NCBI GenBank assembly: GCA_001783805.1
Contig: MFNS01000001.1
Span: 342,921-406,920, forward strand
Direction of reading: 5' to 3'
Length of the DNA: 64,000 nt
DNA from: Candidatus Levybacteria bacterium RIFCSPHIGHO2_01_FULL_40_16
Lineage (GTDB): Bacteria > Patescibacteriota > Microgenomatia > Levybacterales > UBA12049
Each line of letters begins with the position of its first letter. The stretch's first letter is position 1. Of the stretch, positions 3,438 to 52,543 are shown one piece after another. The position numbers and the translations under genes are program-made. Below the pieces are notes generated by a model. The model saw nothing but the letters and a program-made list of their open reading frames with translations, searched no databases and was not told the DNA's origin.

Positions 3438-3466
3438 GAATTTTTTTTGGGGGGGGTTGCAGCCGG
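3438..3466 (+). repeat. intergenic G-tract motif copy 2 (GAATTTTTTTTGGGGGGGGTTGCAGCCGG)
   Basis: Direct reading of the sequence; sits between convergent genes. Confidence 0.85.
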
Positions 3467-3471
3467 CGTGG

Positions 3472-4749: not shown

Positions 4750-4788
4750 TTTTGGTTTTTTTGGGGAGGGAGTTGCAACCGAGTTTTA
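4750..4788 (+). repeat. intergenic G-tract motif copy 3 (TTTTTTTGGGGAGGGAGTTGCAACCGAGTTTT)
   Basis: Direct reading; sits between convergent genes. Confidence 0.75.
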
Positions 4789-5550: not shown

Positions 5551-5605
5551 AAGTCGAAGACAATATTATACTTATTTTTCTTTTTTTGCAAGAATTAGAA
5601 TGTGA

Positions 5606-5640
5606 GAATGGGGGGGGTTGCAGCCGATTTTCTTATTTGC
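5606..5640 (+). repeat. intergenic G-tract motif copy 4 (GAATGGGGGGGGTTGCAGCCGATTTTCTTATTTGC)
   Basis: Direct reading; sits between divergent genes. Confidence 0.85.
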
Positions 5641-6410: not shown

Positions 6411-6441
6411 GGAATTTTAGAGGGGGGGGTTGCAGCCTGTT
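6411..6441 (+). repeat. intergenic G-tract motif copy 5 (GGAATTTTAGAGGGGGGGGTTGCAGCCTGTT)
   Basis: Direct reading. Confidence 0.85.
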
Positions 6442-6518
6442 ATTAATTCCTGTCAAGGCTATTCTTCCGATTGACAAGATTGGCTTAATACGCTAGAATA
6501 ATATTTAATAATCATCTG

Positions 6519-7093: not shown

Positions 7094-7124
7094 GGAATTT
7101 TTTGGGGGGGGTTGCAACCGGTTT
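7094..7124 (+). repeat. intergenic G-tract motif copy 6 (GGAATTTTTTGGGGGGGGTTGCAACCGGTTT)
   Basis: Direct reading. Confidence 0.85.
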
Positions 7125-7140
7125 CCAAGAATTATCAGAT

Positions 7141-8118: not shown

Positions 8119-8172
8119 AGAATTTTTGGGGCGATTTTTTTTGAGGGGGTTGCAGCCGGTTTTTTTTATTTG
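8119..8172 (+). repeat. intergenic G-tract motif copy 7 (GAATTTTTGGGGCGATTTTTTTTGAGGGGGTTGCAGCCGGTTTTTTTTATTTGC)
   Basis: Direct reading; last copy of the array. Confidence 0.8.
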
Positions 8173-11158: not shown

Positions 11159-11169
11159 ATCCAAGGGCG

Positions 11170-11847
11170 TTAAAGCTTGTCAATTTCGGAAGCTAATTCC
11201 TGATTTCTGATTACCATGGAAGCATCATCTCTGATAAATTTAACAATTCCTTCTTTATTAATTATTACGTAACTATGTCCGGGAAATTGACCTTTGTGCA
11301 TTGACGAAGGAAGAGTTAGAACTCCGTATTTTCGGGAAACCTCCCTATTGCTATCAAAAACTACTGTTGCAAGAGCTAGTTCCGGCATTTTATCTGTCGC
11401 TTGTTTCCAATCATTTTTAGGATCAACCGTAATGTTTAATATTACAGCTTTATTTTGCAACCCCGTGTCCTTGCCAAAAGCCGCAATCTGATTCCAGCAG
11501 GCCGGATAACACATCAATCCTTCGTTAAAGAAAAGAATGACATTTTTACCTTTTAATCCACTTAGGGTAATTTTTTTTTCATCATAACTTTCCAACGTAA
11601 AATCAGGCGCAGGTTTATTAATTAAACTATTAAAAATAGTCGTATCAACAGGCGCTCCTCCTCCATGATGATCTGCCGCAGAGTCTGTTTGCGTGCTTTT
11701 GGATAACGCATTACCTGATACTTCCTTTTCAGTCGCCTGAACAGCTTGTCTGTTAGAATTGCTAAACCGACTAACGACCAGTATTAAAACTACGACTATT
11801 CCGGTACTTAAAATTGCAATAAGCCCTGTTTTATTCATGTAAGTCAC
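11170..11847 (-). CDS. membrane-anchored thioredoxin-fold thiol-disulfide oxidoreductase (TlpA/redoxin-like), paralog 1
   Basis: CYPAC (CxxC) active site in a redoxin fold; N-terminal TM segment. Confidence 0.75.
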   Translation of the reverse strand: MTYMNKTGLIAILSTGIVVVLILVVSRFSNSNRQAVQATEKEVSGNALSKSTQTDSAADHHGGGAPVDTTIFNSLINKPAPDFTLESYDEKKITLSGLKGKNVILFFNEGLMCYPACWNQIAAFGKDTGLQNKAVILNITVDPKNDWKQATDKMPELALATVVFDSNREVSRKYGVLTLPSSMHKGQFPGHSYVIINKEGIVKFIRDDASMVIRNQELASEIDKL

Positions 11848-12721: not shown

Positions 12722-12724
12722 AGG

Positions 12725-13333
12725 TTAAAGTTTGTTTATTTCTGCTATTAATTCCTGATTTCTGACTGCCATGGAAACGTCATCTTTGACATATCGGACA
12801 ATTCCCTCTTTATCAATAACCACGTAGGTGTGCCCGGGAAGCTGTCCTTTATGCATGGATGAAGGAAGAGAAAGCATGTCATAGGTTATGGAAATCCGCT
12901 TGTCGGTATCAAAAAGGACTACGGCTTTAGCCAATTCCGGCATTTTTTCAATTGCCATTTTCCAGTCGCTCTTGGGATCATTGAGAATCGTCAATGCAAT
13001 AGTATCCTTACTCGCAAATTCATTATCTTTCCCAAAAGCAGCGATTTGGTCCCAGCAGGCCGGATAACACATTAGGCCTTCACTAAAAAATAGGACAACA
13101 TTTTTACCCTTGAGCTTGCTTAAGGTAACTTTTTCACCGTTGTAATTTTCCAATGTAAAATCAGGCGCTGTTTTGCCGACTAAACTATCAAGCGATATAT
13201 TTACTGTCTGACTAGTAGAAGAGCTTTGCCCGCTATTGCCATTGAATAGAAAGATCGCCGCCACAAGCATAGCAGCTGTAATTATAGAGCCCAATATAAT
13301 AATTTGTTTTTCTTTCATGAAATTATTTAACAA
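12725..13333 (-). CDS. membrane-anchored thioredoxin-fold thiol-disulfide oxidoreductase, paralog 2
   Basis: CYPAC motif; about 65% identical to paralog 1 across the thioredoxin-fold domain. Confidence 0.75.
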   Translation of the reverse strand: MLNNFMKEKQIIILGSIITAAMLVAAIFLFNGNSGQSSSTSQTVNISLDSLVGKTAPDFTLENYNGEKVTLSKLKGKNVVLFFSEGLMCYPACWDQIAAFGKDNEFASKDTIALTILNDPKSDWKMAIEKMPELAKAVVLFDTDKRISITYDMLSLPSSMHKGQLPGHTYVVIDKEGIVRYVKDDVSMAVRNQELIAEINKL

Positions 13334-24796: not shown

Positions 24797-25483
24797 TTAA
24801 ATCTTCTGACCGAGGATTATGGTTACAGGAACCAAGGCATCTACAGGTAATTCTTCTTCCTTAACTGTAAAAGAATTTTCAAGAACGGTTTTTAACTTAT
24901 TTAGAAAATCTTTATCCACTGCTTTTTTGGCTTTTATAATAGTATCCGTATAATCGGAATTGTCCGCATTGCCAACCGAGGACACTGTAAATCCTTCTGC
25001 CTCCAAATTGGTTTTTTGCCTTCCGGCTTCTCCATCTACACCGCTTCCATTTAGTATTTCTATTTCATATTTAGTAAAATCTATTGTTTTTGTAGGCTCG
25101 GGCGTAATTGTCGGAGTTGGACTCGAAGTTGCCACATTGATTTTTTCTCCCTTAAATATCCCTTGTTTATAAATAAAAATCCCAACAAATAGAGCTATCG
25201 CTATAATAAAAATGAAAAATATTGGCCACATATAATTCTTTTTGGGGGTGTTGCCGGATCCCAGAGATTCTTCCTTAATCATCTTTTCCTTAAAGTCGCT
25301 TAGCGCGTCCGCGGATGAAGCCCGTGAGGCAGGAACGTCGTCGACTACCTCTATATTCTCTGTCGTTTTAGTTACCACGTCGGAAATAACTACTGGTTCC
25401 TTCGGCTCGCCGGAGCCTTTGGCGGAGGAGGCTGTTTTTATTTCTTCAGGCTTTGCCTCGTGTTTCTTATGGACAGAAGTCAT
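24797..25483 (-). CDS. LytR_C-domain membrane-anchored protein
   Basis: C-terminal EILNGSGVDGEAGRQKTNLEAEGFTV typical of the LytR C-terminal domain; central TM helix. Carries the family-1 in-frame element. Confidence 0.6.
   Translation of the reverse strand: MTSVHKKHEAKPEEIKTASSAKGSGEPKEPVVISDVVTKTTENIEVVDDVPASRASSADALSDFKEKMIKEESLGSGNTPKKNYMWPIFFIFIIAIALFVGIFIYKQGIFKGEKINVATSSPTPTITPEPTKTIDFTKYEIEILNGSGVDGEAGRQKTNLEAEGFTVSSVGNADNSDYTDTIIKAKKAVDKDFLNKLKTVLENSFTVKEEELPVDALVPVTIILGQKI
25398..25434. repeat. GC-rich element, family 1 copy (CCTTCGGCTCGCCGGAGCCTTTGGCGGAGGAGGCTG), in frame in the LytR_C gene
   Basis: Encodes ASSAKGSGEPKE. Confidence 0.8.
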
Positions 25484-25991: not shown

Positions 25992-27035
25992 TTATTTTAA
26001 ATATTTGTCGAAAAAGTCAACGGAGCGCTGGATGGCAGTGTTAAAATTATTGGCAAGATTATGGTCATCCCCCCGGTAAATAAAGAGTTCCGATATCTTC
26101 CCCATTGCTTTTAATTCTTTATCAAGTTTTTCCGAAAATGCTATTGGAACAGATGCGTCCGCTGTCCCGTGATGCAGTTGAATTGGTCCGGACACATCTT
26201 TAAGGTAGGCGTTTGCAGAAATTGAATTCCAAAAGTTTGGATTTTCCGCTGGTGTTCCAAATTGCGCAACCAAAAGATCTCTCCACCTTCGTGCGCCGGC
26301 TGACAAAGGCGGCGGAGTAAAGGTTGATCTTCTCCAGTTATAAATCAAGTCAGGATAAGAAGCGACTACTCCACCCCAAATTACCCCTGCTTTTATATCT
26401 TTGGAAATTACCATTGAGCGAAGCGTGATAAATCCGCCCATCGAATGCCCCCACATGCCGATGCGATTCACATCAGCATCTTCAAACTTTTTAATTGAGG
26501 CAACCGCATTAAGAACATCTATCGTATATGCCGGTGAGCCATATCCGCCTATGGCTTCCCCTTCCGAATTTCCGTGCCCGCGATAATCGGATTTTAAAAC
26601 TATATAACCGTTCCTGGAAAAAGCATCCGCATACGCGATATATTTTCCCGTAGTTGAATACTCTTTTGGCGAAATGTAGCCATGGTTAAAAATGATAACC
26701 GGCCAACTTCCGCCGGCTGGCGGATTTCCAAAAGGCACAGTTAATAAAGCATAAATTTTCAACCCGTCTGATTTATATGAGGCAATATATTTATTATAAT
26801 TCGATCCACTCTGGAGAGTTTGCTCGATAGTAATTTCACTGCCCGGATATTCCTGGGAACGCATATACTCAATTGAAAGAGGATAAGGAGAGTCTACAAC
26901 TTCGCCTCTATCCTCAAGATTATTTAAGCTATCCGCAGAGTTAGTGGATTGATTTTTTTGTGATTTATTCTTAAAAACTATCAACGCGGAAATTAATATT
27001 ATTGCGATTCCTATTGCAATAATTAATCTTTTCAT
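25992..27035 (-). CDS. exported alpha/beta hydrolase (S9 peptidase / dienelactone-hydrolase-like)
   Basis: GxSxG elbow GMWGHSMGG; N-terminal signal/TM segment. Carries an in-frame NPPAGGS palindromic element. Confidence 0.75.
   Translation of the reverse strand: MKRLIIAIGIAIILISALIVFKNKSQKNQSTNSADSLNNLEDRGEVVDSPYPLSIEYMRSQEYPGSEITIEQTLQSGSNYNKYIASYKSDGLKIYALLTVPFGNPPAGGSWPVIIFNHGYISPKEYSTTGKYIAYADAFSRNGYIVLKSDYRGHGNSEGEAIGGYGSPAYTIDVLNAVASIKKFEDADVNRIGMWGHSMGGFITLRSMVISKDIKAGVIWGGVVASYPDLIYNWRRSTFTPPPLSAGARRWRDLLVAQFGTPAENPNFWNSISANAYLKDVSGPIQLHHGTADASVPIAFSEKLDKELKAMGKISELFIYRGDDHNLANNFNTAIQRSVDFFDKYLK
26709..26726. repeat. family 2 palindromic element (TCCGCCGGCTGGCGGATT), in frame in the alpha/beta hydrolase
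   Basis: Encodes NPPAGG on the minus strand. Confidence 0.75.
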
Positions 27036-27081: not shown

Positions 27082-28227
27082 ATGTCAAACAATAAACGGC
27101 TGTTGTTTATTGCCCTTGGAGTTTTATTAATTTTGAGCATTGTTTATGCTAATTTTACGCAAAAAAGCAGACCGCAAATTAGTACAAATACTACATTACT
27201 AGATAGTGCTGGAGTTAATGAAACGCAAGCTAACGATCCACGATTGACAACTTTAGCGGTAAATTTAGAAATTCCGTGGGCGCTTGTTTTTCTGCCTGAT
27301 AAAAATATTTTATTTACAGAGCGTCCCGGGCGCGTGAGAATTATTGATAGTCAAGGTGTTTTAAATCCTAATCCTGTAGCTACTATTGAGGATGTTAAAC
27401 ATTTTGGTGAGGGCGGGCTTTTGGGAATTACAATTCACCCGAATTTCTCCAATAATCATTTCGTTTATTTCTATTACACTTATAGTTCCACCGGCAATGA
27501 TACCCTGAATCGAGTCGTGAGATTTAAATTTGAAAACAGTGCGTTTTCGGAAAAAACCATAATCGTTGACAAAATTCCGGGCGCGCTTTTTCACAATGGG
27601 GGACGCATAAAATTTGGTCCCGATGGTTTTTTATATATTACAACCGGCGATTCCCAAAACCCCTCTCTTGCGCAGAATAAAAATTCTCTTGCCGGGAAAA
27701 TTTTAAGAGTAACTTCTGATGGTAATCCCGCTCCGGATAATCCTTTTGGAAATTTAGTTTTCAGTTTCGGACACAGAAACCCCCAGGGAATTACCTGGGA
27801 AGGCAACACCTTGTGGGAAACCGAACACGGAGCAAGTACGTTGGATGAATTAAATGTAATTGAAAAAGGTAAAAATTATGGATGGCCGGTAATTTCGGGA
27901 AATCAAACGCGAAATGGCATGGAAACGCCGGTTATGAACAGCGGTTTTGACACATGGGCGCCAAGCGGCACAGTTTTTCTTAACGGCTCTATATTTTTTG
28001 CGGGACTGCGGGGACAAGCGCTGTTTGAATATAATATCGAAAGTAAAATTCTCACATCTCATCTCAAAGGAGAAATCGGCAGAATTAGAGAGGTGGTTGT
28101 CGGACCCGCTTCGCAGCGAGGCGAGCCGGATAATTTACTTTATATCACCACTAGTAACCGTGATGGCCGCGGAGCTCCTGATGCAACAGATGATAAAATA
28201 ATCCGCGTAAATCCAAATAAGCTTTGA
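27082..28227 (+). CDS. PQQ-dependent sugar dehydrogenase (soluble glucose/sorbosone dehydrogenase family)
   Basis: Beta-propeller signature ERPGRVRII ... GGLLGITIHP ... HNGGRIKFGPDGFLYITTGD; signal anchor. Confidence 0.8.
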   Translation: MSNNKRLLFIALGVLLILSIVYANFTQKSRPQISTNTTLLDSAGVNETQANDPRLTTLAVNLEIPWALVFLPDKNILFTERPGRVRIIDSQGVLNPNPVATIEDVKHFGEGGLLGITIHPNFSNNHFVYFYYTYSSTGNDTLNRVVRFKFENSAFSEKTIIVDKIPGALFHNGGRIKFGPDGFLYITTGDSQNPSLAQNKNSLAGKILRVTSDGNPAPDNPFGNLVFSFGHRNPQGITWEGNTLWETEHGASTLDELNVIEKGKNYGWPVISGNQTRNGMETPVMNSGFDTWAPSGTVFLNGSIFFAGLRGQALFEYNIESKILTSHLKGEIGRIREVVVGPASQRGEPDNLLYITTSNRDGRGAPDATDDKIIRVNPNKL

Positions 28228-29877: not shown

Positions 29878-30483
29878 CTATCCTGCTGCGCCTCGGAACA
29901 TTTCTGTTTTGTTTTGCTCTCTCACAATCGCCAACGGAGGCGGTTTTTTCGCTTCTTTTTGCTGCAAGTCCTGCATTTCTTTGTTTTTCTCCTGCTCTAC
30001 TTTTTCTGCGGGCCTTTCTTCTCCGCCGGCCGGCGGATTTTTTGGATTAAATGTCGGATCATAATAAACGTCTTTGTGCAATTGATTTCGCAACTCTATC
30101 AGCCTTTTTTGCTCTTCAAGAGTTTTGTCGGCAATCTGCTCTTGAAATTCGCTCGGTTTTTTACCCTCCACCGTTGCCTGCTTATTGGTTTTCAAACTTC
30201 CATCCTGCGACATGTCCGACTTGCCATAAAGATCCTTTAAAAATTTAATCCGTTCTTCATCCGATTGCCACTGCTTTTGCTTTGGCTCACTCGCCTCGCT
30301 GGAGCTTTGACGAAGCGGGCCGAAGTCCTCAGCGGAAGCGGCAGGCTTGGCTATCCCAACTTGTCCGGCTAAATCTTGTGCAATTTCTTCAGGTATTTTT
30401 ATAGCCTGTTTTGCGGTCTGTTTCGCAGTTTGTCCGAGCTGATTAAGCGCCCCTCCCAAAATTGTCGTATCATCCATATTCAA
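29878..30483 (-). CDS. hypothetical charged low-complexity protein
   Basis: 201-aa ORF rich in K/E/Q; carries an in-frame NPPAGGEE palindromic element. Confidence 0.4.
   Translation of the reverse strand: MNMDDTTILGGALNQLGQTAKQTAKQAIKIPEEIAQDLAGQVGIAKPAASAEDFGPLRQSSSEASEPKQKQWQSDEERIKFLKDLYGKSDMSQDGSLKTNKQATVEGKKPSEFQEQIADKTLEEQKRLIELRNQLHKDVYYDPTFNPKNPPAGGEERPAEKVEQEKNKEMQDLQQKEAKKPPPLAIVREQNKTEMFRGAAG
30022..30039. repeat. family 2 palindromic element (TCCGCCGGCCGGCGGATT), in frame in the hypothetical gene
   Basis: Encodes NPPAGGE on the minus strand. Confidence 0.75.
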
Positions 30484-31312: not shown

Positions 31313-31945
31313 TCAATAATCCTGCCTACCTTCCATGGCGCGTTGAAGAGTTAGTTCGTCGGCGTATTCGATGTCCGCTCCCGTCGGCAATCCCCGCCCA
31401 ATGCGGGTAATTTTTAATTTTGCTTGTCCTTCCGAAGCTTTAGCGGAGGAGGAAGTTTTGATTTGTTTACTAATATACATTGCTGTTGCCTCTCCCTCCA
31501 TGGTCGGATTCGTTGCCAAAATGATTTCACTGATTGCAGACTGATTTCCGCGGATTCGTTCAAGCAATTGATTAATGCGGATCTCATCCGGACCGATGTT
31601 GCTCAACGGATCTATTCTTCCATGAAGCACGTGATAAATCCCCTTATATTTTCCGTTTTTCTCAAGCGCCAAAACATCCAGCGGCTCCTCGACCACGCAA
31701 ATAATTGACTTATTCCGCTCCCGATTCGCACAAATACTGCAGGGGTCGCTCTCGTCTACCGAAAAGCAAATAGAACAAATAATTGTTCCTTTTTTGAGAT
31801 TTTGGATTGAATTTGAAAAGCTATCTAATTCACCTTGCGGGACATGTAAAAGGTAAAAGGTCAAACGCTGGGCGGTTTTGCTACCAATACCGGGTAACTT
31901 CTCAAAAGATTCAATTAAATTCTGTATTGCCTTGGGAATCTTCAT
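31313..31945 (-). CDS. recR: recombination protein RecR
   Basis: N-terminal HhH (LPGIGSKTAQRL), C4 zinc finger, Toprim domain. Confidence 0.95.
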   Translation of the reverse strand: MKIPKAIQNLIESFEKLPGIGSKTAQRLTFYLLHVPQGELDSFSNSIQNLKKGTIICSICFSVDESDPCSICANRERNKSIICVVEEPLDVLALEKNGKYKGIYHVLHGRIDPLSNIGPDEIRINQLLERIRGNQSAISEIILATNPTMEGEATAMYISKQIKTSSSAKASEGQAKLKITRIGRGLPTGADIEYADELTLQRAMEGRQDY

Positions 31946-33322: not shown

Positions 33323-34807
33323 TTACCTATTTTTTAATTCTATTTCTATTTTAACATTTTTTTTCGTAATTCCTCTTAGGGCATTTTCCAATACTTCTTC
33401 AGTTTTAACTTCGCTAAGTTTGTCTTTATGAAATTTAAAATTTGTCTGCAATAATAATTTTTTACCATCGTAGCTTTTTATACTGCATCCGCGCAAAACT
33501 CCGGCTATAGAATGATTGTAGGTTTTTACTTTATCTACTAAAGCAGTCCACAAAGCATCATGCTCGCTATAATTTGAAATCCCCTGCTGGACGATATTAA
33601 TCGTTTCTTTTTTTATATCTAGTCGAGGGGTGGCGCGACTGGAGGGCGTCCCGTCGAGTGACCGCAGGGGGCTTGCGACCGAGGACGTCGGACGGGACGA
33701 AGGAGCGACAGGACCCCGAACTGATGAAGTATGGTCCGCCCCAACAGCGACTGAACACCATTCGACAATCACTAATTCCAATGGCAATTGGGGAAGCACT
33801 GCATATTTCAGCTCACTTTTTGCTTTTGCTAATAATTCAATCAGTCTTTTTATTTCTCCTATTTCTAATTTTGAATTATCCATTACGAGCACCGAATTAT
33901 CTTCTGAAAATTCCACTCCCGCTTTAAAAAGCAAACTATTATGTAAAGTTTCTATGAGCCCCTGCATGAAATACCCCATCTCAACCCCCTCGCTTGCGAG
34001 CTTTGCGACTATTCCCAATCCCCCCTTCGTATCTTTTTCTTCCAAAGATTTTATCATTTGGGCTATTTGATATTGTGTGCTGGCAATTGAATAATTTTTC
34101 TCGACCAATTCTTTGGTGATTTTTTTATTCTTGGCTAGCGTTACTATTTCTTCCAGAATTTTCGCTCCATCCCTAAAGCTTCCATCCGAAAGATTAGCAA
34201 TTAAGCGTAGGGCATCTTCCTCTGCTTCCAAATTTTCTTTTTTAATTATTTTCCCAAATGAACGGACCAGCTCTTCCTCGGTTGCTCTTTTAAATTGTAT
34301 GCGTAAACAGCGCGATATTATTGTGCCGGGAACTTTGTGGGGTTCGGTTGTACAAAGGATAAAAACCACGTGGCTTGGCGGCTCTTCCAAAGTTTTAAGA
34401 AGCGCATTGAAAGCCTCCGTAGTTAGCATGTGAACTTCATCAATAATGTAAACTTTTCTGGTCGCGCTCATTGGAGACAATTTTACTTTCTCACGAAGAT
34501 CGCGGATTTCATCTATTCCTCTATTTGATGCGCCGTCTATTTCCAGAATATCCATATTCGTTCCATTGGTTATGGATACGCATTGCTCGCATTTGTTGCA
34601 CGGCTCGATACCCTTTGTTTTCTTTTCGCAATTCAGGACTTTTGCGACAATTCTGGCTGTTGACGTTTTTCCCAAACCCTTAGAACCCGTAAAGAGAAAC
34701 GCATGCGGAACCGATGAGCTTTCCAGAACATTGTAAAGTTTTTCGCGAACTTCTTTGCTGTCAAGCTCTTCTATTTTTTGCGGACGATATTTCCGATAAA
34801 AAACCAT
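33323..34807 (-). CDS. dnaX: DNA polymerase III subunit gamma/tau
   Basis: Walker A GSKGLGKTST, zinc module CNKCEQC, clamp-loader domains. Contains a GC-rich in-frame linker insertion. Confidence 0.9.
   Translation of the reverse strand: MVFYRKYRPQKIEELDSKEVREKLYNVLESSSVPHAFLFTGSKGLGKTSTARIVAKVLNCEKKTKGIEPCNKCEQCVSITNGTNMDILEIDGASNRGIDEIRDLREKVKLSPMSATRKVYIIDEVHMLTTEAFNALLKTLEEPPSHVVFILCTTEPHKVPGTIISRCLRIQFKRATEEELVRSFGKIIKKENLEAEEDALRLIANLSDGSFRDGAKILEEIVTLAKNKKITKELVEKNYSIASTQYQIAQMIKSLEEKDTKGGLGIVAKLASEGVEMGYFMQGLIETLHNSLLFKAGVEFSEDNSVLVMDNSKLEIGEIKRLIELLAKAKSELKYAVLPQLPLELVIVEWCSVAVGADHTSSVRGPVAPSSRPTSSVASPLRSLDGTPSSRATPRLDIKKETINIVQQGISNYSEHDALWTALVDKVKTYNHSIAGVLRGCSIKSYDGKKLLLQTNFKFHKDKLSEVKTEEVLENALRGITKKNVKIEIELKNR
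33621..33765. repeat. ~145-nt GC-rich imperfectly palindromic element inserted in frame inside dnaX
   Basis: GC content far above the flanks; inverted segments CGTCCCGTCG ... CGACGGGACG; encodes a Pro/Ser/Arg-rich linker (GADHTSSVRGPVAPSSRPTSSVASPLRSLDGTPSSRATPRLD). Confidence 0.6.
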
Positions 34808-39462: not shown

Positions 39463-39701
39463 AGTCTTATTTTATTCTACTTAAATTTCCATGTAAAATA
39501 AATGCCTGCATTATTCTAATCTCTTGAGCCCACCGCTCTTTTCCAAAATGGGGAATGTTATTCATATATCTTTAATAAAACTCATGCTCCCGCAAATCAT
39601 TATTTTCATAACTTTATTCTTTCTTATTAGCAACTTTTAATTATTAATTATTCGGTAAATTACTAAATATTAATTAATATTAATTAGCTGTACAAAAGTT
39701 G

Positions 39702-39721
39702 GCTGCTATGTAGCAGCGAAC
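39702..39721. repeat. copy 1 of palindromic repeat GCTGCTATGTAGCAGCGAAC, 3' flank of the trpR-like gene
   Basis: Identical to the core of the copy at 40287-40310. Confidence 0.8.
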
Positions 39722-39732
39722 TTTATACCAGC

Positions 39733-40266
39733 TTAGCGACCGAGAAATTTTCCAATCCTTTTATGCAGTTCACTTTTTTCTTCCAGTCGATCTAAAACAT
39801 TTTTTATTTTGTCTTTTTGCCTTTGACTTGCGCTTTTTATTACCTGCTCAAGCAATAATTCCGGCCAAAAGTATAACGAATAACGCCTCTTGAAATTATC
39901 CCAGTCCGAAATTTCTTCCCAAGAATTCTGGGTTACTTGTTTGGGCAAATTGCTGATAATTTTCCTGAAACCCCCTCCTCTTTCCGAAAGCCATACGGCG
40001 ATTTTAGCTATTGTAGTATGCCCCACATGAAGATCTTGTTCGATTTCCCTGTAATCCATTCCCTTTATAAGTAGCTTTGCAATGCGTAGTCGCTTCGCAA
40101 GCATCTTGATTTCCGATTTCGTCAGCAAATCCTGAAGAAAGAGAGCCGCATCCCCGATACTTTTTGTGGAAACTATGGCATTGACCAAGTCCATAACTAA
40201 ATCTTCGTGATCCTTCTTAGTCAATTTATCCAAGCGTTTATGTTTTTCTAAATAAAGTTTCTTCAT
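39733..40266 (-). CDS. TrpR-like YerC/YecD-family DNA-binding protein
   Basis: C-terminal HTH (MDYREIEQDLHVGHTTIAKI); similar to the trp-repressor-like YerC family. Confidence 0.6.
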   Translation of the reverse strand: MKKLYLEKHKRLDKLTKKDHEDLVMDLVNAIVSTKSIGDAALFLQDLLTKSEIKMLAKRLRIAKLLIKGMDYREIEQDLHVGHTTIAKIAVWLSERGGGFRKIISNLPKQVTQNSWEEISDWDNFKRRYSLYFWPELLLEQVIKSASQRQKDKIKNVLDRLEEKSELHKRIGKFLGR

Positions 40267-40275
40267 AGCTATATT

Positions 40276-41154
40276 TTACTGCAATAGTTCGCTGCTATGT
40301 AGCAGCGAACTTACTACATAACTTTTATATTGCATATGTTTCAGGAAGAATTCAGCTGTTGCTTTGTCTGCCTGTTCTGCGTGTTTTGAATTATCGTGAA
40401 ATCCGTGTTCCCCGCCTTCAATAGTAATTAATTTCGCATTCTTAAAAAGCTTAGAATACTTAACAGAATCAGAATATGGAATATAAGAATCTTTGTCCCC
40501 GTGAATAAAGAGAATTGGATTATTAATACCTACAAGTCCTTTCCATGGCTCAAGAATTTTGATTTCATCCATAAGGTTTTTCCCAACGTTAAACCCCTTA
40601 CTTCCTATTTCTGTGAATCCAAACTTTTCTGCCCTGTCAAACGCCGGTTTCCCAAAGTATTTCTTTCCCCAAGGAGTAACGGGCGTAATCTTTGAACTAT
40701 AATCAATTCCTGCATTCCATAGGACAAGCGCTTTTACCAATTCTGAATGTTTTGAAGTGAATAAGGAAACTGCTCCGCCTCCAAAACTTGCCCCCAGAAT
40801 CCCAAACTCCCTATATTCTTTTTCCTGAAGAAATTTAATTGCTGATTCCAAATCTTCCATCTCTTTTGTAATCGTCATATCAATGCTTTTACCTTCGCTT
40901 TCACCTTGTCCACGGAAATCAAAACGGAAAACGGCAAATCCCACATCTGTTAATTTTTTAGCGAGCTGGGTAAAAACTCCATCCTCTTCTTTGTCAACAT
41001 TTCCTATTCCGTGACAAAGAATGATGCACTTATCGGTTTTTTGTTTGGGAGTTGACAAGATTCCGCAGAGTTTTAATCCGTCAGAAGTGTCAAAAAAAAC
41101 TTTTTCTTCCATGATTTTTAGATTTGGCAGAAGGCAGGATATGGTTCCAGCCAT
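40276..41154 (-). CDS. alpha/beta hydrolase (S9/dienelactone-hydrolase-like)
   Basis: GxSxG GASFGGG; the last 11 codons are encoded by the palindromic repeat copy 2. Confidence 0.75.
   Translation of the reverse strand: MAGTISCLLPNLKIMEEKVFFDTSDGLKLCGILSTPKQKTDKCIILCHGIGNVDKEEDGVFTQLAKKLTDVGFAVFRFDFRGQGESEGKSIDMTITKEMEDLESAIKFLQEKEYREFGILGASFGGGAVSLFTSKHSELVKALVLWNAGIDYSSKITPVTPWGKKYFGKPAFDRAEKFGFTEIGSKGFNVGKNLMDEIKILEPWKGLVGINNPILFIHGDKDSYIPYSDSVKYSKLFKNAKLITIEGGEHGFHDNSKHAEQADKATAEFFLKHMQYKSYVVSSLLHSSELLQ
40287..40310. repeat. copy 2 of the perfect 24-bp palindrome GTTCGCTGCTATGTAGCAGCGAAC, 5' flank of the trpR-like gene
   Basis: Perfect palindrome overlapping the 3' end of the hydrolase CDS. 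Confidence 0.8.
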
Positions 41155-44854: not shown

Positions 44855-45739
44855 TTAAGACTTTTTACTTTTTGTTTTTGTTTTTGCTTCTTTTTCAGCT
44901 TTCTTCTTTGGCTCGCCGGAGCCTTTGGCGGAGGCGGCTGCAGCCCTGGCCGCTTCTTTTTCTGCCTTAATCTTGGCTTTCTCCGCTTCTACCGCTGTCT
45001 TTTTTACTTCTTCTTCTCTAATCCTGATTCCTTCTTTTCTTCCTTCAATCCAAGCGTCAATAATGTAAGAGACTATTAATTTAATCGAACCAACCGCGTC
45101 GTCGTTGGCCGGAATCGGATAATCGATAATTGACGGGTCCGCATTGGTATCAACCAGAGCGACTGTCGGAACATGGGTTACCAAAGCCTCCCTAACTGCC
45201 AAATTTTCCAAGTGAGAATCAATTATGAAGAGGCAATCTGGCTTTTTGGTAATTTTCGCAACTCCGCCATAAAGATTCTCCAATTTGTTTTTTTCTTTTT
45301 CCCATCCGCCGACTTCTTTTTTTGTGTACCTTGATTTTACTTCGTCATCTTGTAAATCGGTGACGAAATCCGCGTATTTCTTAAAATTCTTGGAGACTTC
45401 CTGAAAATTCGTCAAAAGTCCGCCCACCCAACGGTTGGTAATGTAGAAAAGGTTCTCGCCTGAATTCTCACCTGCAGAAGCCCTTTTTACTTCCTCCTCA
45501 ACTATTGTTCTGGCTTGTCTTTTCGTACCAACAATAACCAGTACGCCGTTTTTGGCGGCTAAATCTCGGATAAAGGCAGCGGCCTCTTCCAAGCCTGCCT
45601 TTGTTTTGGCAAGATCAATAATGTGAATGTTATCACGGGCTTCAAAAATAAAATCCCGGGCTTTGGGGTTACTGCGGGTGACTTGGTGGCCAAAATGGCA
45701 ACCGGCTTCCAATAATTCTTCCAGCGTAATTTCTCTCAT
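44855..45739 (-). CDS. rpsB: 30S ribosomal protein S2 with Lys/Ala-rich C-terminal extension
   Basis: Conserved S2 core; the C-terminal tail includes the family-1 in-frame element. Confidence 0.95.
   Translation of the reverse strand: MREITLEELLEAGCHFGHQVTRSNPKARDFIFEARDNIHIIDLAKTKAGLEEAAAFIRDLAAKNGVLVIVGTKRQARTIVEEEVKRASAGENSGENLFYITNRWVGGLLTNFQEVSKNFKKYADFVTDLQDDEVKSRYTKKEVGGWEKEKNKLENLYGGVAKITKKPDCLFIIDSHLENLAVREALVTHVPTVALVDTNADPSIIDYPIPANDDAVGSIKLIVSYIIDAWIEGRKEGIRIREEEVKKTAVEAEKAKIKAEKEAARAAAASAKGSGEPKKKAEKEAKTKTKSKKS
44905..44940. repeat. GC-rich element, family 1 (TCTTTGGCTCGCCGGAGCCTTTGGCGGAGGCGGCTG), in frame in the rpsB tail
   Basis: Near-identical copies at 25398-25434 and 52246-52281; encodes AAASAKGSGEPK. 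Confidence 0.8.
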
Positions 45740-48540: not shown

Positions 48541-48595
48541 CTTGCTCGCCGACTTGTCCGCCAAAGCTTCAGCGGTGGAAGCTTTAGCGAAGGTG
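48541..48595. repeat. GC-rich intergenic segment resembling a rearranged family-1 element (GCTCGCCGA...CCGCCAAAGC...GGTGGAAGC)
   Basis: Shares GCTCGCCG and the reverse complement of CTTTGGCGG with family 1; internal palindrome AAAGCTTC..GAAGCTTT. Confidence 0.35.
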
Positions 48596-48606
48596 GGACT
48601 TCTTCG

Positions 48607-52030: not shown

Positions 52031-52543
52031 TTATTTTTCCAAGTCCAGAAACTTATATTTATACCCTTCGGATTCCCCCGCTTTTTCAGATATGACTGCT
52101 TTAAACTCCGAATAATCCGGAAAAAAAGTATCCGCTTCGGAGTCTCCACCAGCTGGCGGATCAATTATCGTTAAATAAAGTTTGTCCACTAATCCTTTTT
52201 TAATCGCCTGGTCATAAATCTGTCCACCTCCAATAATAAATATTTCCTTTGGCTCGCCGAAGCCTTCGGCGGAGGCGGCTGCTTTTTTAATCGATTCTTC
52301 AATTGAATTGCAAACGACAGCGCCTTCCGCCTTAAATTTAGCGTCTCGCGTTATAACAATGTTATAACGTTTTGGTAAAGGTTTTGTCGGCAGAGATTCC
52401 CAAGTTTTGCGACCCATGATAACCGGATGCCCCTTTGTGATATTTCTAAATCTTTGCAAATCTTCTTTGATGTGCCACAGCAACTTATTGTCTTTTCCCA
52501 ATTCCCGATTTTTCCCAATCGCCGCAATCGCACTTACTTTCAT
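52031..52543 (-). CDS. folA: dihydrofolate reductase
   Basis: N-terminal IAAIGKNRELG; GRKTWESLP and GGGQIY motifs. Carries two in-frame GC-rich insertions (family 1 and family 2). Confidence 0.9.
   Translation of the reverse strand: MKVSAIAAIGKNRELGKDNKLLWHIKEDLQRFRNITKGHPVIMGRKTWESLPTKPLPKRYNIVITRDAKFKAEGAVVCNSIEESIKKAAASAEGFGEPKEIFIIGGGQIYDQAIKKGLVDKLYLTIIDPPAGGDSEADTFFPDYSEFKAVISEKAGESEGYKYKFLDLEK
52145..52162. repeat. family 2 palindromic element (TCCACCAGCTGGCGGATC), in frame in folA
   Basis: Encodes DPPAGGD inserted between IID and EADTFFP of DHFR. Confidence 0.75.
52246..52281. repeat. GC-rich element, family 1 copy (CCTTTGGCTCGCCGAAGCCTTCGGCGGAGGCGGCTG), in frame in folA
   Basis: Encodes AAASAEGFGEPK, inserted before EIFIIGGG. 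Confidence 0.8.

Follow-up and report, generated by a model that had tools for sequence, protein, structure and literature searches.

How do three unrelated genes of one genome come to share the same short, GC-rich segment, each time in frame? The question is raised by a stretch of 64,000 nucleotides (nt) from Candidatus Levybacteria bacterium RIFCSPHIGHO2_01_FULL_40_16 (assembly GCA_001783805.1, contig MFNS01000001.1, positions 342,921 to 406,920), called the window throughout. An original prediction, made from the letters alone, had described elements of about 36 nt in a LytR_C gene, in rpsB and in folA, and had interpreted them as a proliferating mini-element that is tolerated in protein loops and tails. 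The three sequences are probably copies of a 33-nt, GC-rich, non-autonomous mobile hairpin that resembles repetitive extragenic palindromes (REPs) and persists at sites where it contributes a small flexible peptide. Candidatus Levybacteria bacterium RIFCSPLOWO2_01_FULL_39_24, which belongs to the Microgenomates within the Patescibacteria, or candidate phyla radiation (CPR), has DHFR, S2, LytR_C and RecR proteins identical to those encoded in the window.

All three copies are on the minus strand and in frame. Copy 1 (25400-25432) lies in the N-terminal cytoplasmic segment of a membrane protein with a LytR_C domain (24797-25483, minus strand; Pfam PF13399, E = 2.3e-12), where it encodes ASSAKGSGEPK. 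Copy 2 (44906-44938) encodes AASAKGSGEPK in the Lys/Glu/Ala-rich C-terminal tail of ribosomal protein S2, the product of rpsB (44855-45739, minus strand; PF00318, Ribosomal_S2, E = 1.5e-72). Copy 3 (52247-52279) encodes AASAEGFGEPK in the loop before EIFIIGGG of dihydrofolate reductase (DHFR), the product of folA (52031-52543, minus strand; PF00186, DHFR_1, E = 8.2e-48). The in-frame translations thus agree with the pattern A(A/S)SA(K/E)G(S/F)GEPK that had been read from the DNA. A search of the window with a 31-mer, allowing at most three mismatches, found exactly three sites (25404-25434, 44910-44940 and 52251-52281), and none of 100 dinucleotide-preserving shuffles gave any match. A repeat finder also grouped the copies into one family (D6) with 92-100% identity over 36 nt. 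The family was therefore correctly recognized, but its length was not: the unit conserved across all copies is 33 nt, or 11 codons, with pairwise identities between the window copies of 31/33, 29/33 and 31/33. In this lineage, the unit usually has GCA directly before it.

The copies stand out by their composition, with a GC content of about 68-69% compared to 36-43% in the window, and they use the codons GCC, TCC and GGC, which are disfavoured by the window genes. Given the peptide and the codon usage of the window, the probability of the exact element codons is around 9e-8 per copy, which excludes convergent evolution of a linker peptide. As the segments are short and simple in composition, and the genomes are metagenome-assembled, the likeness might be attributed to chance among low-complexity Ala/Ser/Gly linkers or to an assembly or chimera artefact. 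Both are refuted by the shuffles and the codon probability, by the presence of the identical locus in independent assemblies and sources, and by in-frame copies in conserved genes from many projects, so that the probability left for them is negligible.

A fourth copy, overlooked in the original prediction, is present on the minus strand of a hypothetical gene (29878-30483). Its 5′ half (30319-30342, AASAEDFG) and its 3′ end (30280-30288, GAG CCA AAG, encoding EPK) are separated by a nested insert of 30 nt (30289-30318, PLRQSSSEAS) belonging to a different GC-rich mini-element, which splits the copy at GGC^GAG. When the halves are rejoined, 29 of 33 positions are identical to copy 3. The sequence at 30280-30342 is an older copy, split by another mini-element.

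That the DHFR segment is an insert lengthening the loop before EIFIIGGG, as had been proposed, follows from comparison with orthologues. In an alignment of 33 of these, the closest one (P0002/L118, 80% identical) reads KA-GSND-EIFIIGGG where the window protein reads KA-AASAEGFGEPK-EIFIIGGG; at the DNA level, this empty site is AAA GCA GGG AGC AAT GAC GAA. In the AlphaFold model of the protein, which has a mean pLDDT (predicted local distance difference test score) of 87, the insert is situated between helix 81-92 and strand 100-104, and the mean pLDDT falls to 70 over residues 91-100. A more distant DHFR, L120 (66% identical protein), carries an element identical at 33/33 positions at the same place, and L119 has a variant with a different closing pair (ACC...TCA). 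Between the window and L120, the element codons are identical in 11 of 11 cases, vs 52-54% for same-residue codons elsewhere in the gene. The carriers are polyphyletic: in a neighbour-joining tree from which the loop columns were left out, they fall into three separate clades, each with insert-free nearest neighbours. The element replaces the ancestral loop G-x-x-E, and its 3′ end (GGC GAG .. .. | GAA) is similar to that loop; insertion in DHFR may therefore have been homology-assisted or site-preferring.

The same DHFR loop contains at least four unrelated inserts in other orthologues, namely LKQVQHD, SIKYYVLSSKY...IHDTKYMI, SGQARMT and LPLPKGEDRGEG (seen among P0020/P0030/P0031, P0023/P0040/P0052/P0091/P0120, P0009 and P0117). 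The two types tagged on the tree, KQVQ and YVLSSKY, are polyphyletic as well. Since unrelated inserts share this loop, it is a general hot spot, or recurrent landing place, for mini-elements. A second mini-palindrome family, ATCCGCCAGCTGGCGGAT with its variants, is found in the window at 2071-2092, 26708-26729, 30019-30039 and around 52143-52161, where its in-frame reading is (D/N)PPAGG. The DHFR copy lengthens the protein by four residues (IDPPAGGD), and the family occurs on four separate DHFR branches (the window, P0005, P0006 and P0046) and in the RpsB tail of P0158. On a related Levybacteria contig, a gene for a 125-amino-acid 23S_rRNA_IVP or bAvd-like four-helix bundle lies directly upstream of the element-bearing DHFR gene (L120 2768-3145 and L121 4385-4762); it is not found at the corresponding place in the window.

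The RpsB tail gives a similar picture. An empty tail in L120 reads IKKES|EKAV vs IKKEA[...]EKTA and is exactly 11 residues shorter; set against the filled tail of L245, it reveals a clean insertion between KKE(A/S) and EK. Together with the insert-free DHFR, this bears out the indel that had been expected from orthologue alignments. Among the best 120 S2 homologues, the closest two (92 and 90% identical) are element-free, three have the intact element peptide and about nine more have a mutated or interrupted version. The RpsB gene of L243 has a copy identical to window copy 2 at 33/33 positions, L244 has the same copy with two substitutions, and in L245 the copy is broken by a nested insert of 21 nt at GGC^GAG. 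Between the window and L243, the element codons are again identical in 11 of 11 cases, vs 52-54% of the same-residue codons elsewhere in the gene. As this excess identity at synonymous sites is far above the level of the rest of the gene, the element is either younger than the carrier lineages or constrained at the nucleotide level. In LytR_C orthologues, the position just upstream of EPVVVSD shows intact, point-mutated, internally deleted (AASGEPK, AASAEPK), nested-insert and absent versions. To judge from these sequences, the RpsB and LytR_C orthologues form a decay series of the element.

The nested inserts have a family of their own. Its GC-rich hairpin, CCGCTTCGCAGCGAGGCGA, occurs alone in a glucose/sorbosone dehydrogenase (GSDH) gene at 28103-28125, where a 19-mer is related to the nested insert at 30289-30318. 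Both this insert and the one in the RpsB tail encoded on L245 1-3368 interrupt the 33-mer at the same GGC^GAG point, in two unrelated genes of two genomes. Nesting at an identical point suggests that the stem of the 33-mer is itself a preferred target.

The family extends far beyond this genome. A genome scan with the 22-mer core, using one genome per species, gave at least 117 loci. Around 50 of those listed belong to many classes of Patescibacteria, i.e., Levy-, Davies-, Staskawicz-, Nomura-, Falkow-, Yanofsky-, Zambryski-, Kaiser-, Sungii- and Saccharibacteria; the remaining ones listed are mostly from high-GC Vicinamibacterales and other Acidobacteriota. A metagenome scan in which the inner positions were left free added at least 120 further loci. 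Pooled, both scans comprise at least 125 distinct copies in low-GC, mostly Patescibacteria, DNA. The family is thus not limited to three copies that share a peptide without nucleotide identity: the copies are numerous, they are found in unrelated genes, and nucleotide identity is much higher in the element than in the gene around it. Combined with the insert-free orthologues and the polyphyletic carriers, this sustains the earlier view of a proliferating mini-element. The contrast between a GC-rich element and an AT-rich genome also holds, but it is not specific to this genome, as the element spans the CPR and its core is found in acidobacterial REP-like repeats as well. No match to the 22-mer was obtained in the viral contigs of IMG/VR, which gives no indication of a phage vector.

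A wide range of genes serves as host, and many of these have housekeeping roles. The 86 host open reading frames (ORFs) that were scanned yielded 122 Pfam families, including RpoC (the beta′ subunit of RNA polymerase), DnaK (six times), class I tRNA synthetases, S1, L25, TopA, GyrA, RecA, NusA and TGT. The copies are dispersed over the length of the host proteins and are somewhat more frequent at the ends. Among the matches listed, almost all low-GC copies are intragenic. Outside the window their density is low: 54 loci, each of up to around 8 kb, contained two additional diverged copies. The reading frame is strongly biased: 98 of the 122 copies listed are in the ASAKGSGE frame, and 15 are called in the antisense frame SP(E/K)P(L/S)AE. 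Some of the antisense calls in loci of the genome scan are spurious ORFs; three antisense-strand copies are in real genes, encoding a TatD-like protein and the tail of NusA (both in the SP(E/K)P(L/S)AE frame) and a glycosyltransferase (in another antisense frame). We infer that the bias is caused by selection on the peptide.

To define the element, 125 low-GC copies among the matches listed were compared. The conserved span covers positions -5 to +27 relative to CTCCGCC, i.e., 33 nt, and the consensus in coding sense is N-CC-GCC-TCC-GCC-RAA-GGC-TNC-GGC-GAG-N′-CR-ARG, flanked by A-rich Lys/Glu codons. The peptide pattern is x-A-S-A-K/E-G-S/F/Y-G-E-x-K/R, which is small, hydrophilic and flexible, and there is no stop in any reading frame. 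According to ViennaRNA, the minimum-energy fold of the window copies is a two-tier hairpin. An outer stem of 6 bp (NCCGCC/GGCG(A)GN′), in which one A is bulged, is followed by a 3x3 internal loop and then by an inner stem, GCC/GGC, with a loop of 3 nt. The closing pair is formed by N and N′, the base after GAG, which are Watson-Crick partners in 117 of the 125 copies (C-G 71, G-C 29, T-A 14 and A-T 3); high-GC copies follow the same pattern. In an alignment of 120 rows, the closing pair is CG in 68, GC in 27, UA in 14 and AU in three, with 44 double changes, and the covariation was matched by none of 500 shuffles. The changes alter residues (A..P, P..A, S..T, T..S) and keep the pairing, which speaks for conservation of the nucleic acid, not of the peptide.

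Two small internal hairpins had been noted before in the copies. They can be read in the text of the sequence, but the structure backed by covariation is the two-tier hairpin. A simple palindrome, CTC(C)GCCRAAG/CTYCGGCGAG with an extension, was rejected, as its covariation does not go beyond the shuffles and its inner positions vary freely (K/E/Q, S/F/Y). A strand asymmetry through G-U wobble, suggested by the window copies, was not borne out by the unbiased scan. Target-site duplication is absent: repeats of 2-4 nt do not rise above the rest at any pair of offsets. In the window, Rfam gave no match at the gathering score and only noise around copy 3, so the element is no piece of a known structured RNA.

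These results bear on the possibility that the peptide is the unit of selection, as a flexible linker or recognition tag (xASAKGSGExK) that was spread by short-patch recombination or gene conversion. It would fit with the preference for one of six stop-free frames, with the Gly/Ser/Ala-rich nature of the peptide and with synonymous variants that keep it, such as the copy of L103 (TCG GCT). However, the codons are conserved despite being GC-rich and unusual for the host, and the covarying pair alters residues while it preserves base pairing. Antisense-frame copies exist in real genes, the loop and tail sites share no function, and the same DNA is apparently non-coding in the REP-like repeats of high-GC bacteria. 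Selection on the peptide is therefore a quite improbable origin of the repetition.

A hairpin that is a functional nucleic-acid signal under selection, for example a DNA site for protein binding, an element for mRNA stability or pausing, or a recognition site for a conserved CPR factor, is somewhat less improbable, but still unlikely. Its location in genes would then be a by-product of the near absence of intergenic DNA. Such a signal would be consistent with near-identical nucleotides in very distant classes of Patescibacteria and in acidobacterial repeats, with a closing pair that covaries through all four Watson-Crick types, with synonymous sites that are frozen relative to the host gene and with the use of the same DHFR loop in three clades. 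It is harder to reconcile with copies that decay freely in place by point changes, internal deletions and nested inserts, with close orthologues that lack the element, and with host genes and positions that have nothing in common. The low density outside the window and the lack of an Rfam match likewise argue against it. On balance, the element is inferred to be selfish and mobile rather than functional.

As a mobile hairpin, the element would be copied to new chromosomal sites without target-site duplication, folding into the two-tier hairpin as single-stranded DNA or RNA. Because it is 11 codons long and stop-free in every frame, its insertion never breaks the frame of the host. Patescibacteria have gene-dense, AT-rich genomes, in which the surviving copies would be those in surface loops and disordered tails, and selection would filter them to the frame that encodes a small flexible peptide. 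After insertion, a copy would evolve as ordinary coding sequence, through point changes, internal in-frame deletions and nested inserts. More speculatively, an IS200-like HUH tyrosine transposase of the REP-associated tyrosine transposase (RAYT) type may move the element by way of a single-stranded DNA intermediate.

A link to REP sequences is given by the Vicinamibacterales. In these bacteria, the same hairpin is the first of two hairpins inside an outer covarying stem (GTCCGGCTTCC...GGCAGCCGGAC) and is preceded by CGTAG, the whole forming a GTAG-tagged composite REP-like repeat of around 85 nt (L007, L016, L022, L045 and about 15 other Vicinamibacterales loci). This first hairpin matches the CPR element's core exactly and is apparently non-coding there. 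Moreover, five ORFs of one family (190-240 amino acids, IS200-like Y1/HUH) were found in approximately 0.98 Mb of element-anchored low-GC DNA from around 150 CPR loci. They are located on Patescibacteria-like contigs, at L145 4235-4924, L155 4809-5474, L193 6189-6755, L233 10885-11613 and L242 2796-3476, and the three that were scanned match Pfam Y1_Tnp with E = 1e-8 to 1e-10. A REPtron arrangement around these RAYT-like genes was looked for and not seen. The genes near five copies are only a lead to a mobilising enzyme, not evidence for it.

Several points speak against a mobile REP-like hairpin or limit the case for it. First, near-identical strains showed no filled/empty polymorphism. L122, the one close relative that was retrieved, is the same genome (99.99% identity), and a sister strain with an empty site, as the original prediction had expected to be worth checking, was sought among the members of the protein clusters, which are all filled. 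P0126, which had the appearance of an N-terminally truncated sister, was rejected as it is the same genome with a scaffold gap. As there is no near-identical filled/empty pair, insertion is deduced from orthologues at 66-92% amino-acid identity. Secondly, the three DHFR carrier clades share one position of the element, GCA|...|GAA, at which it displaces three to five ancestral loop residues. Random insertion with subsequent selection accounts for this no better than a site-specific or homology-assisted process, or lateral exchange, would. Thirdly, the structural support consists of one covarying pair, as the other stem positions are mostly fixed by the search patterns, and the fold energies are no better than those of shuffles, a comparison that is uninformative for such GC-rich 39-mers. 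Fourthly, neither a GTAG/CGTC tag nor any conserved tetranucleotide was found outside positions -5 to +27 in the 125 low-GC copies listed, and the count of four copies for this genome covers the 64-kb window alone. Concerning the enzyme, the best NCBIfam match of the Y1 ORFs is the REP-associated tyrosine transposase, below the curated cut-off; the genes are 2-7 kb away from the element and are not flanked by it; their number, five loci, may be no more than the background frequency; and a crude HUH-Y motif scan and a local hidden Markov model search revealed no transposase in the window. Lastly, the strong sequence conservation across phyla could equally mean that the hairpin has a function. 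Identity across phyla could reflect horizontal spread, one conserved enzyme or the hairpin's own function.

Among known systems, the tagged REPs are one of those closest to this element. In-frame intragenic REPs with a GTAG or CGTC tag have been described, and some of them extend otherwise normal proteins by a short peptide; many of these proteins are involved in replication, repair or RNA binding (Di Nocera et al., 2013; PMC3733652). They share with the CPR element a GC-rich stem-loop of 20-40 nt, copies in frame in ORFs and, in the Vicinamibacterales, the same hairpin inside a GTAG-tagged composite repeat. However, the tag is confined to that composite form and is lacking from the CPR copies. 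REPs are also mainly extragenic and high in copy number, whereas the CPR copies are nearly all in ORFs, with four in 64 kb, and are single instead of inverted dimers. Furthermore, one family spans a superphylum, not a genus or species.

The Rickettsia palindromic elements (RPE) are cited, in a passage of PMC3733652, as related documented in-gene elements (Ogata et al., 2000). Like the element described here, they are palindromic and inserted in frame, at fold-compatible positions, in many unrelated and often essential genes of a bacterium with a small genome. RPE-1 is about 100-150 bp long and known only from Rickettsia. The present element, in contrast, is 33 nt long, GC-rich in an AT-rich genome and distributed across Patescibacteria; it is set apart from RPE by length and host. 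With REPIN/RAYT systems and the single-strand transposition of IS200/IS605, the element has in common a hairpin with an extrahelical base, the lack of target duplication and the presence of Y1_Tnp/RAYT-like genes on element-bearing CPR contigs. It differs by lacking the REPtron arrangement, inverted pairs, a conserved tetranucleotide foot and an enzyme in the window, so the link between element and RAYT is circumstantial.

Yeast mitochondrial GC clusters and other organellar hairpins are likewise short, GC-rich palindromes that proliferate in a compact AT-rich genome (PMC4464245, PMC2800124, PMC6649704). Occasionally they are tolerated in coding sequence. M-class yeast GC clusters are accompanied by a small target duplication. 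The CPR element is not, and the clusters are organellar and belong to unrelated lineages, so this is an analogy only. Miniature inverted-repeat transposable elements, which derive from DDE transposases, have terminal inverted repeats and a target-site duplication and measure 70-300 bp, unlike the present element with its 33 nt and no target-site duplication. In the literature searched, no earlier description of such elements in CPR/Patescibacteria was found; as the coverage was incomplete, this is no proof of novelty. In-frame palindromic mini-repeats as a kind are known; new are the size, the missing tag, the location almost entirely inside genes and a range that covers a superphylum.

If the element is indeed a mobile hairpin, the gene-dense, reduced genomes of the CPR are invaded by tiny hairpins that become part of essential proteins. 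This would provide a direct and datable mechanism for the loop and tail insertions that set CPR proteins apart from their homologues. The element can also serve as a marker for strain typing and for the dating of insertions, and it gives rise to false "conserved motifs" in models of protein families and to false ORFs on the opposite strand. The core shared with GTAG-tagged repeats of Acidobacteriota, together with the RAYT-like genes of the CPR, makes REP-like movement testable in a new lineage. A wider proposal is put forward tentatively, with less than even confidence: the family could represent an undescribed, superphylum-wide class of protein-invading mobile DNA, at 11 codons the shortest known. 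From Levybacteria to Saccharibacteria, the hairpin would have been kept identical, and in common with REP-like repeats of Acidobacteriota, through one conserved single-strand-DNA enzyme or through horizontal movement. Together with sister families (PPAGG, KQVQHD, AKASADK and others), it would time after time reshape the loops and tails of such essential proteins as RpoC, DnaK, tRNA synthetases, S2 and DHFR, and in-frame insertion would be a major ongoing source of variation in CPR protein length.

Other repeats in the window are related to the 33-nt element to different degrees. The rearranged relative that had been reported in the intergenic region at 48541-48595 is real, with limits at 48541-48600 directly 3′ of glyA, but it is only partly related. 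It shares the end motifs CTTGCTCGCCGA... and ...GAAGCTTTAGCGAAGGTGG, has an inverted repeat of its own (48559-48570/48578-48589) and is assigned to a related family (D7). Words that it encodes (AKAS.., ALADKSA) recur in frame in orthologue tails. An insert of the same family, TSSSAKASEGQAK, is present on the minus strand of the RecR gene at 31418-31456, between the Toprim and RecR_C domains. Judged by their letters, the spacer and the RecR insert belong to related families outside the 33-nt family. An example of a peptide across a junction of insert and host is ...KKAAASAEGFGEPKEIFIIGGG.

The dnaX gene (33323-34807, minus strand) contains an island of 102 nt (33618-33719) with 71% GC in the linker of DnaX, encoding a Ser/Pro/Arg-rich segment (…SSVRGPVAPSSRPTSSVASPLRSLDGTPSSRATPRLD) and including a 9-bp inverted repeat, CGTCCCGTC/GACGGGACG. 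The island resembles a longer insertion, of an element from another family. Besides, six copies of a G-run with a near-palindrome, GGGGGGGGTTGCAGCCGG, often followed by T-runs, are found within 5 kb (3441-3471, 4757-4787, 5602-5632, 6414-6444, 7096-7126 and 8134-8164). A palindromic pair of 36 nt, …GTTGGCTGCTATGTAGCAGCGAAC…, with 89% identity, is located at 39693-39728 and 40282-40317, 589 nt apart, and brackets the ORF at 39733-40266. Finally, in 11169-11633 and 12724-13191, around 1555 nt apart, stretches of 257 and 166 nt are repeated at 72-75% identity; the regions 11170-11847 and 12725-13333 are probably a paralogous gene pair.

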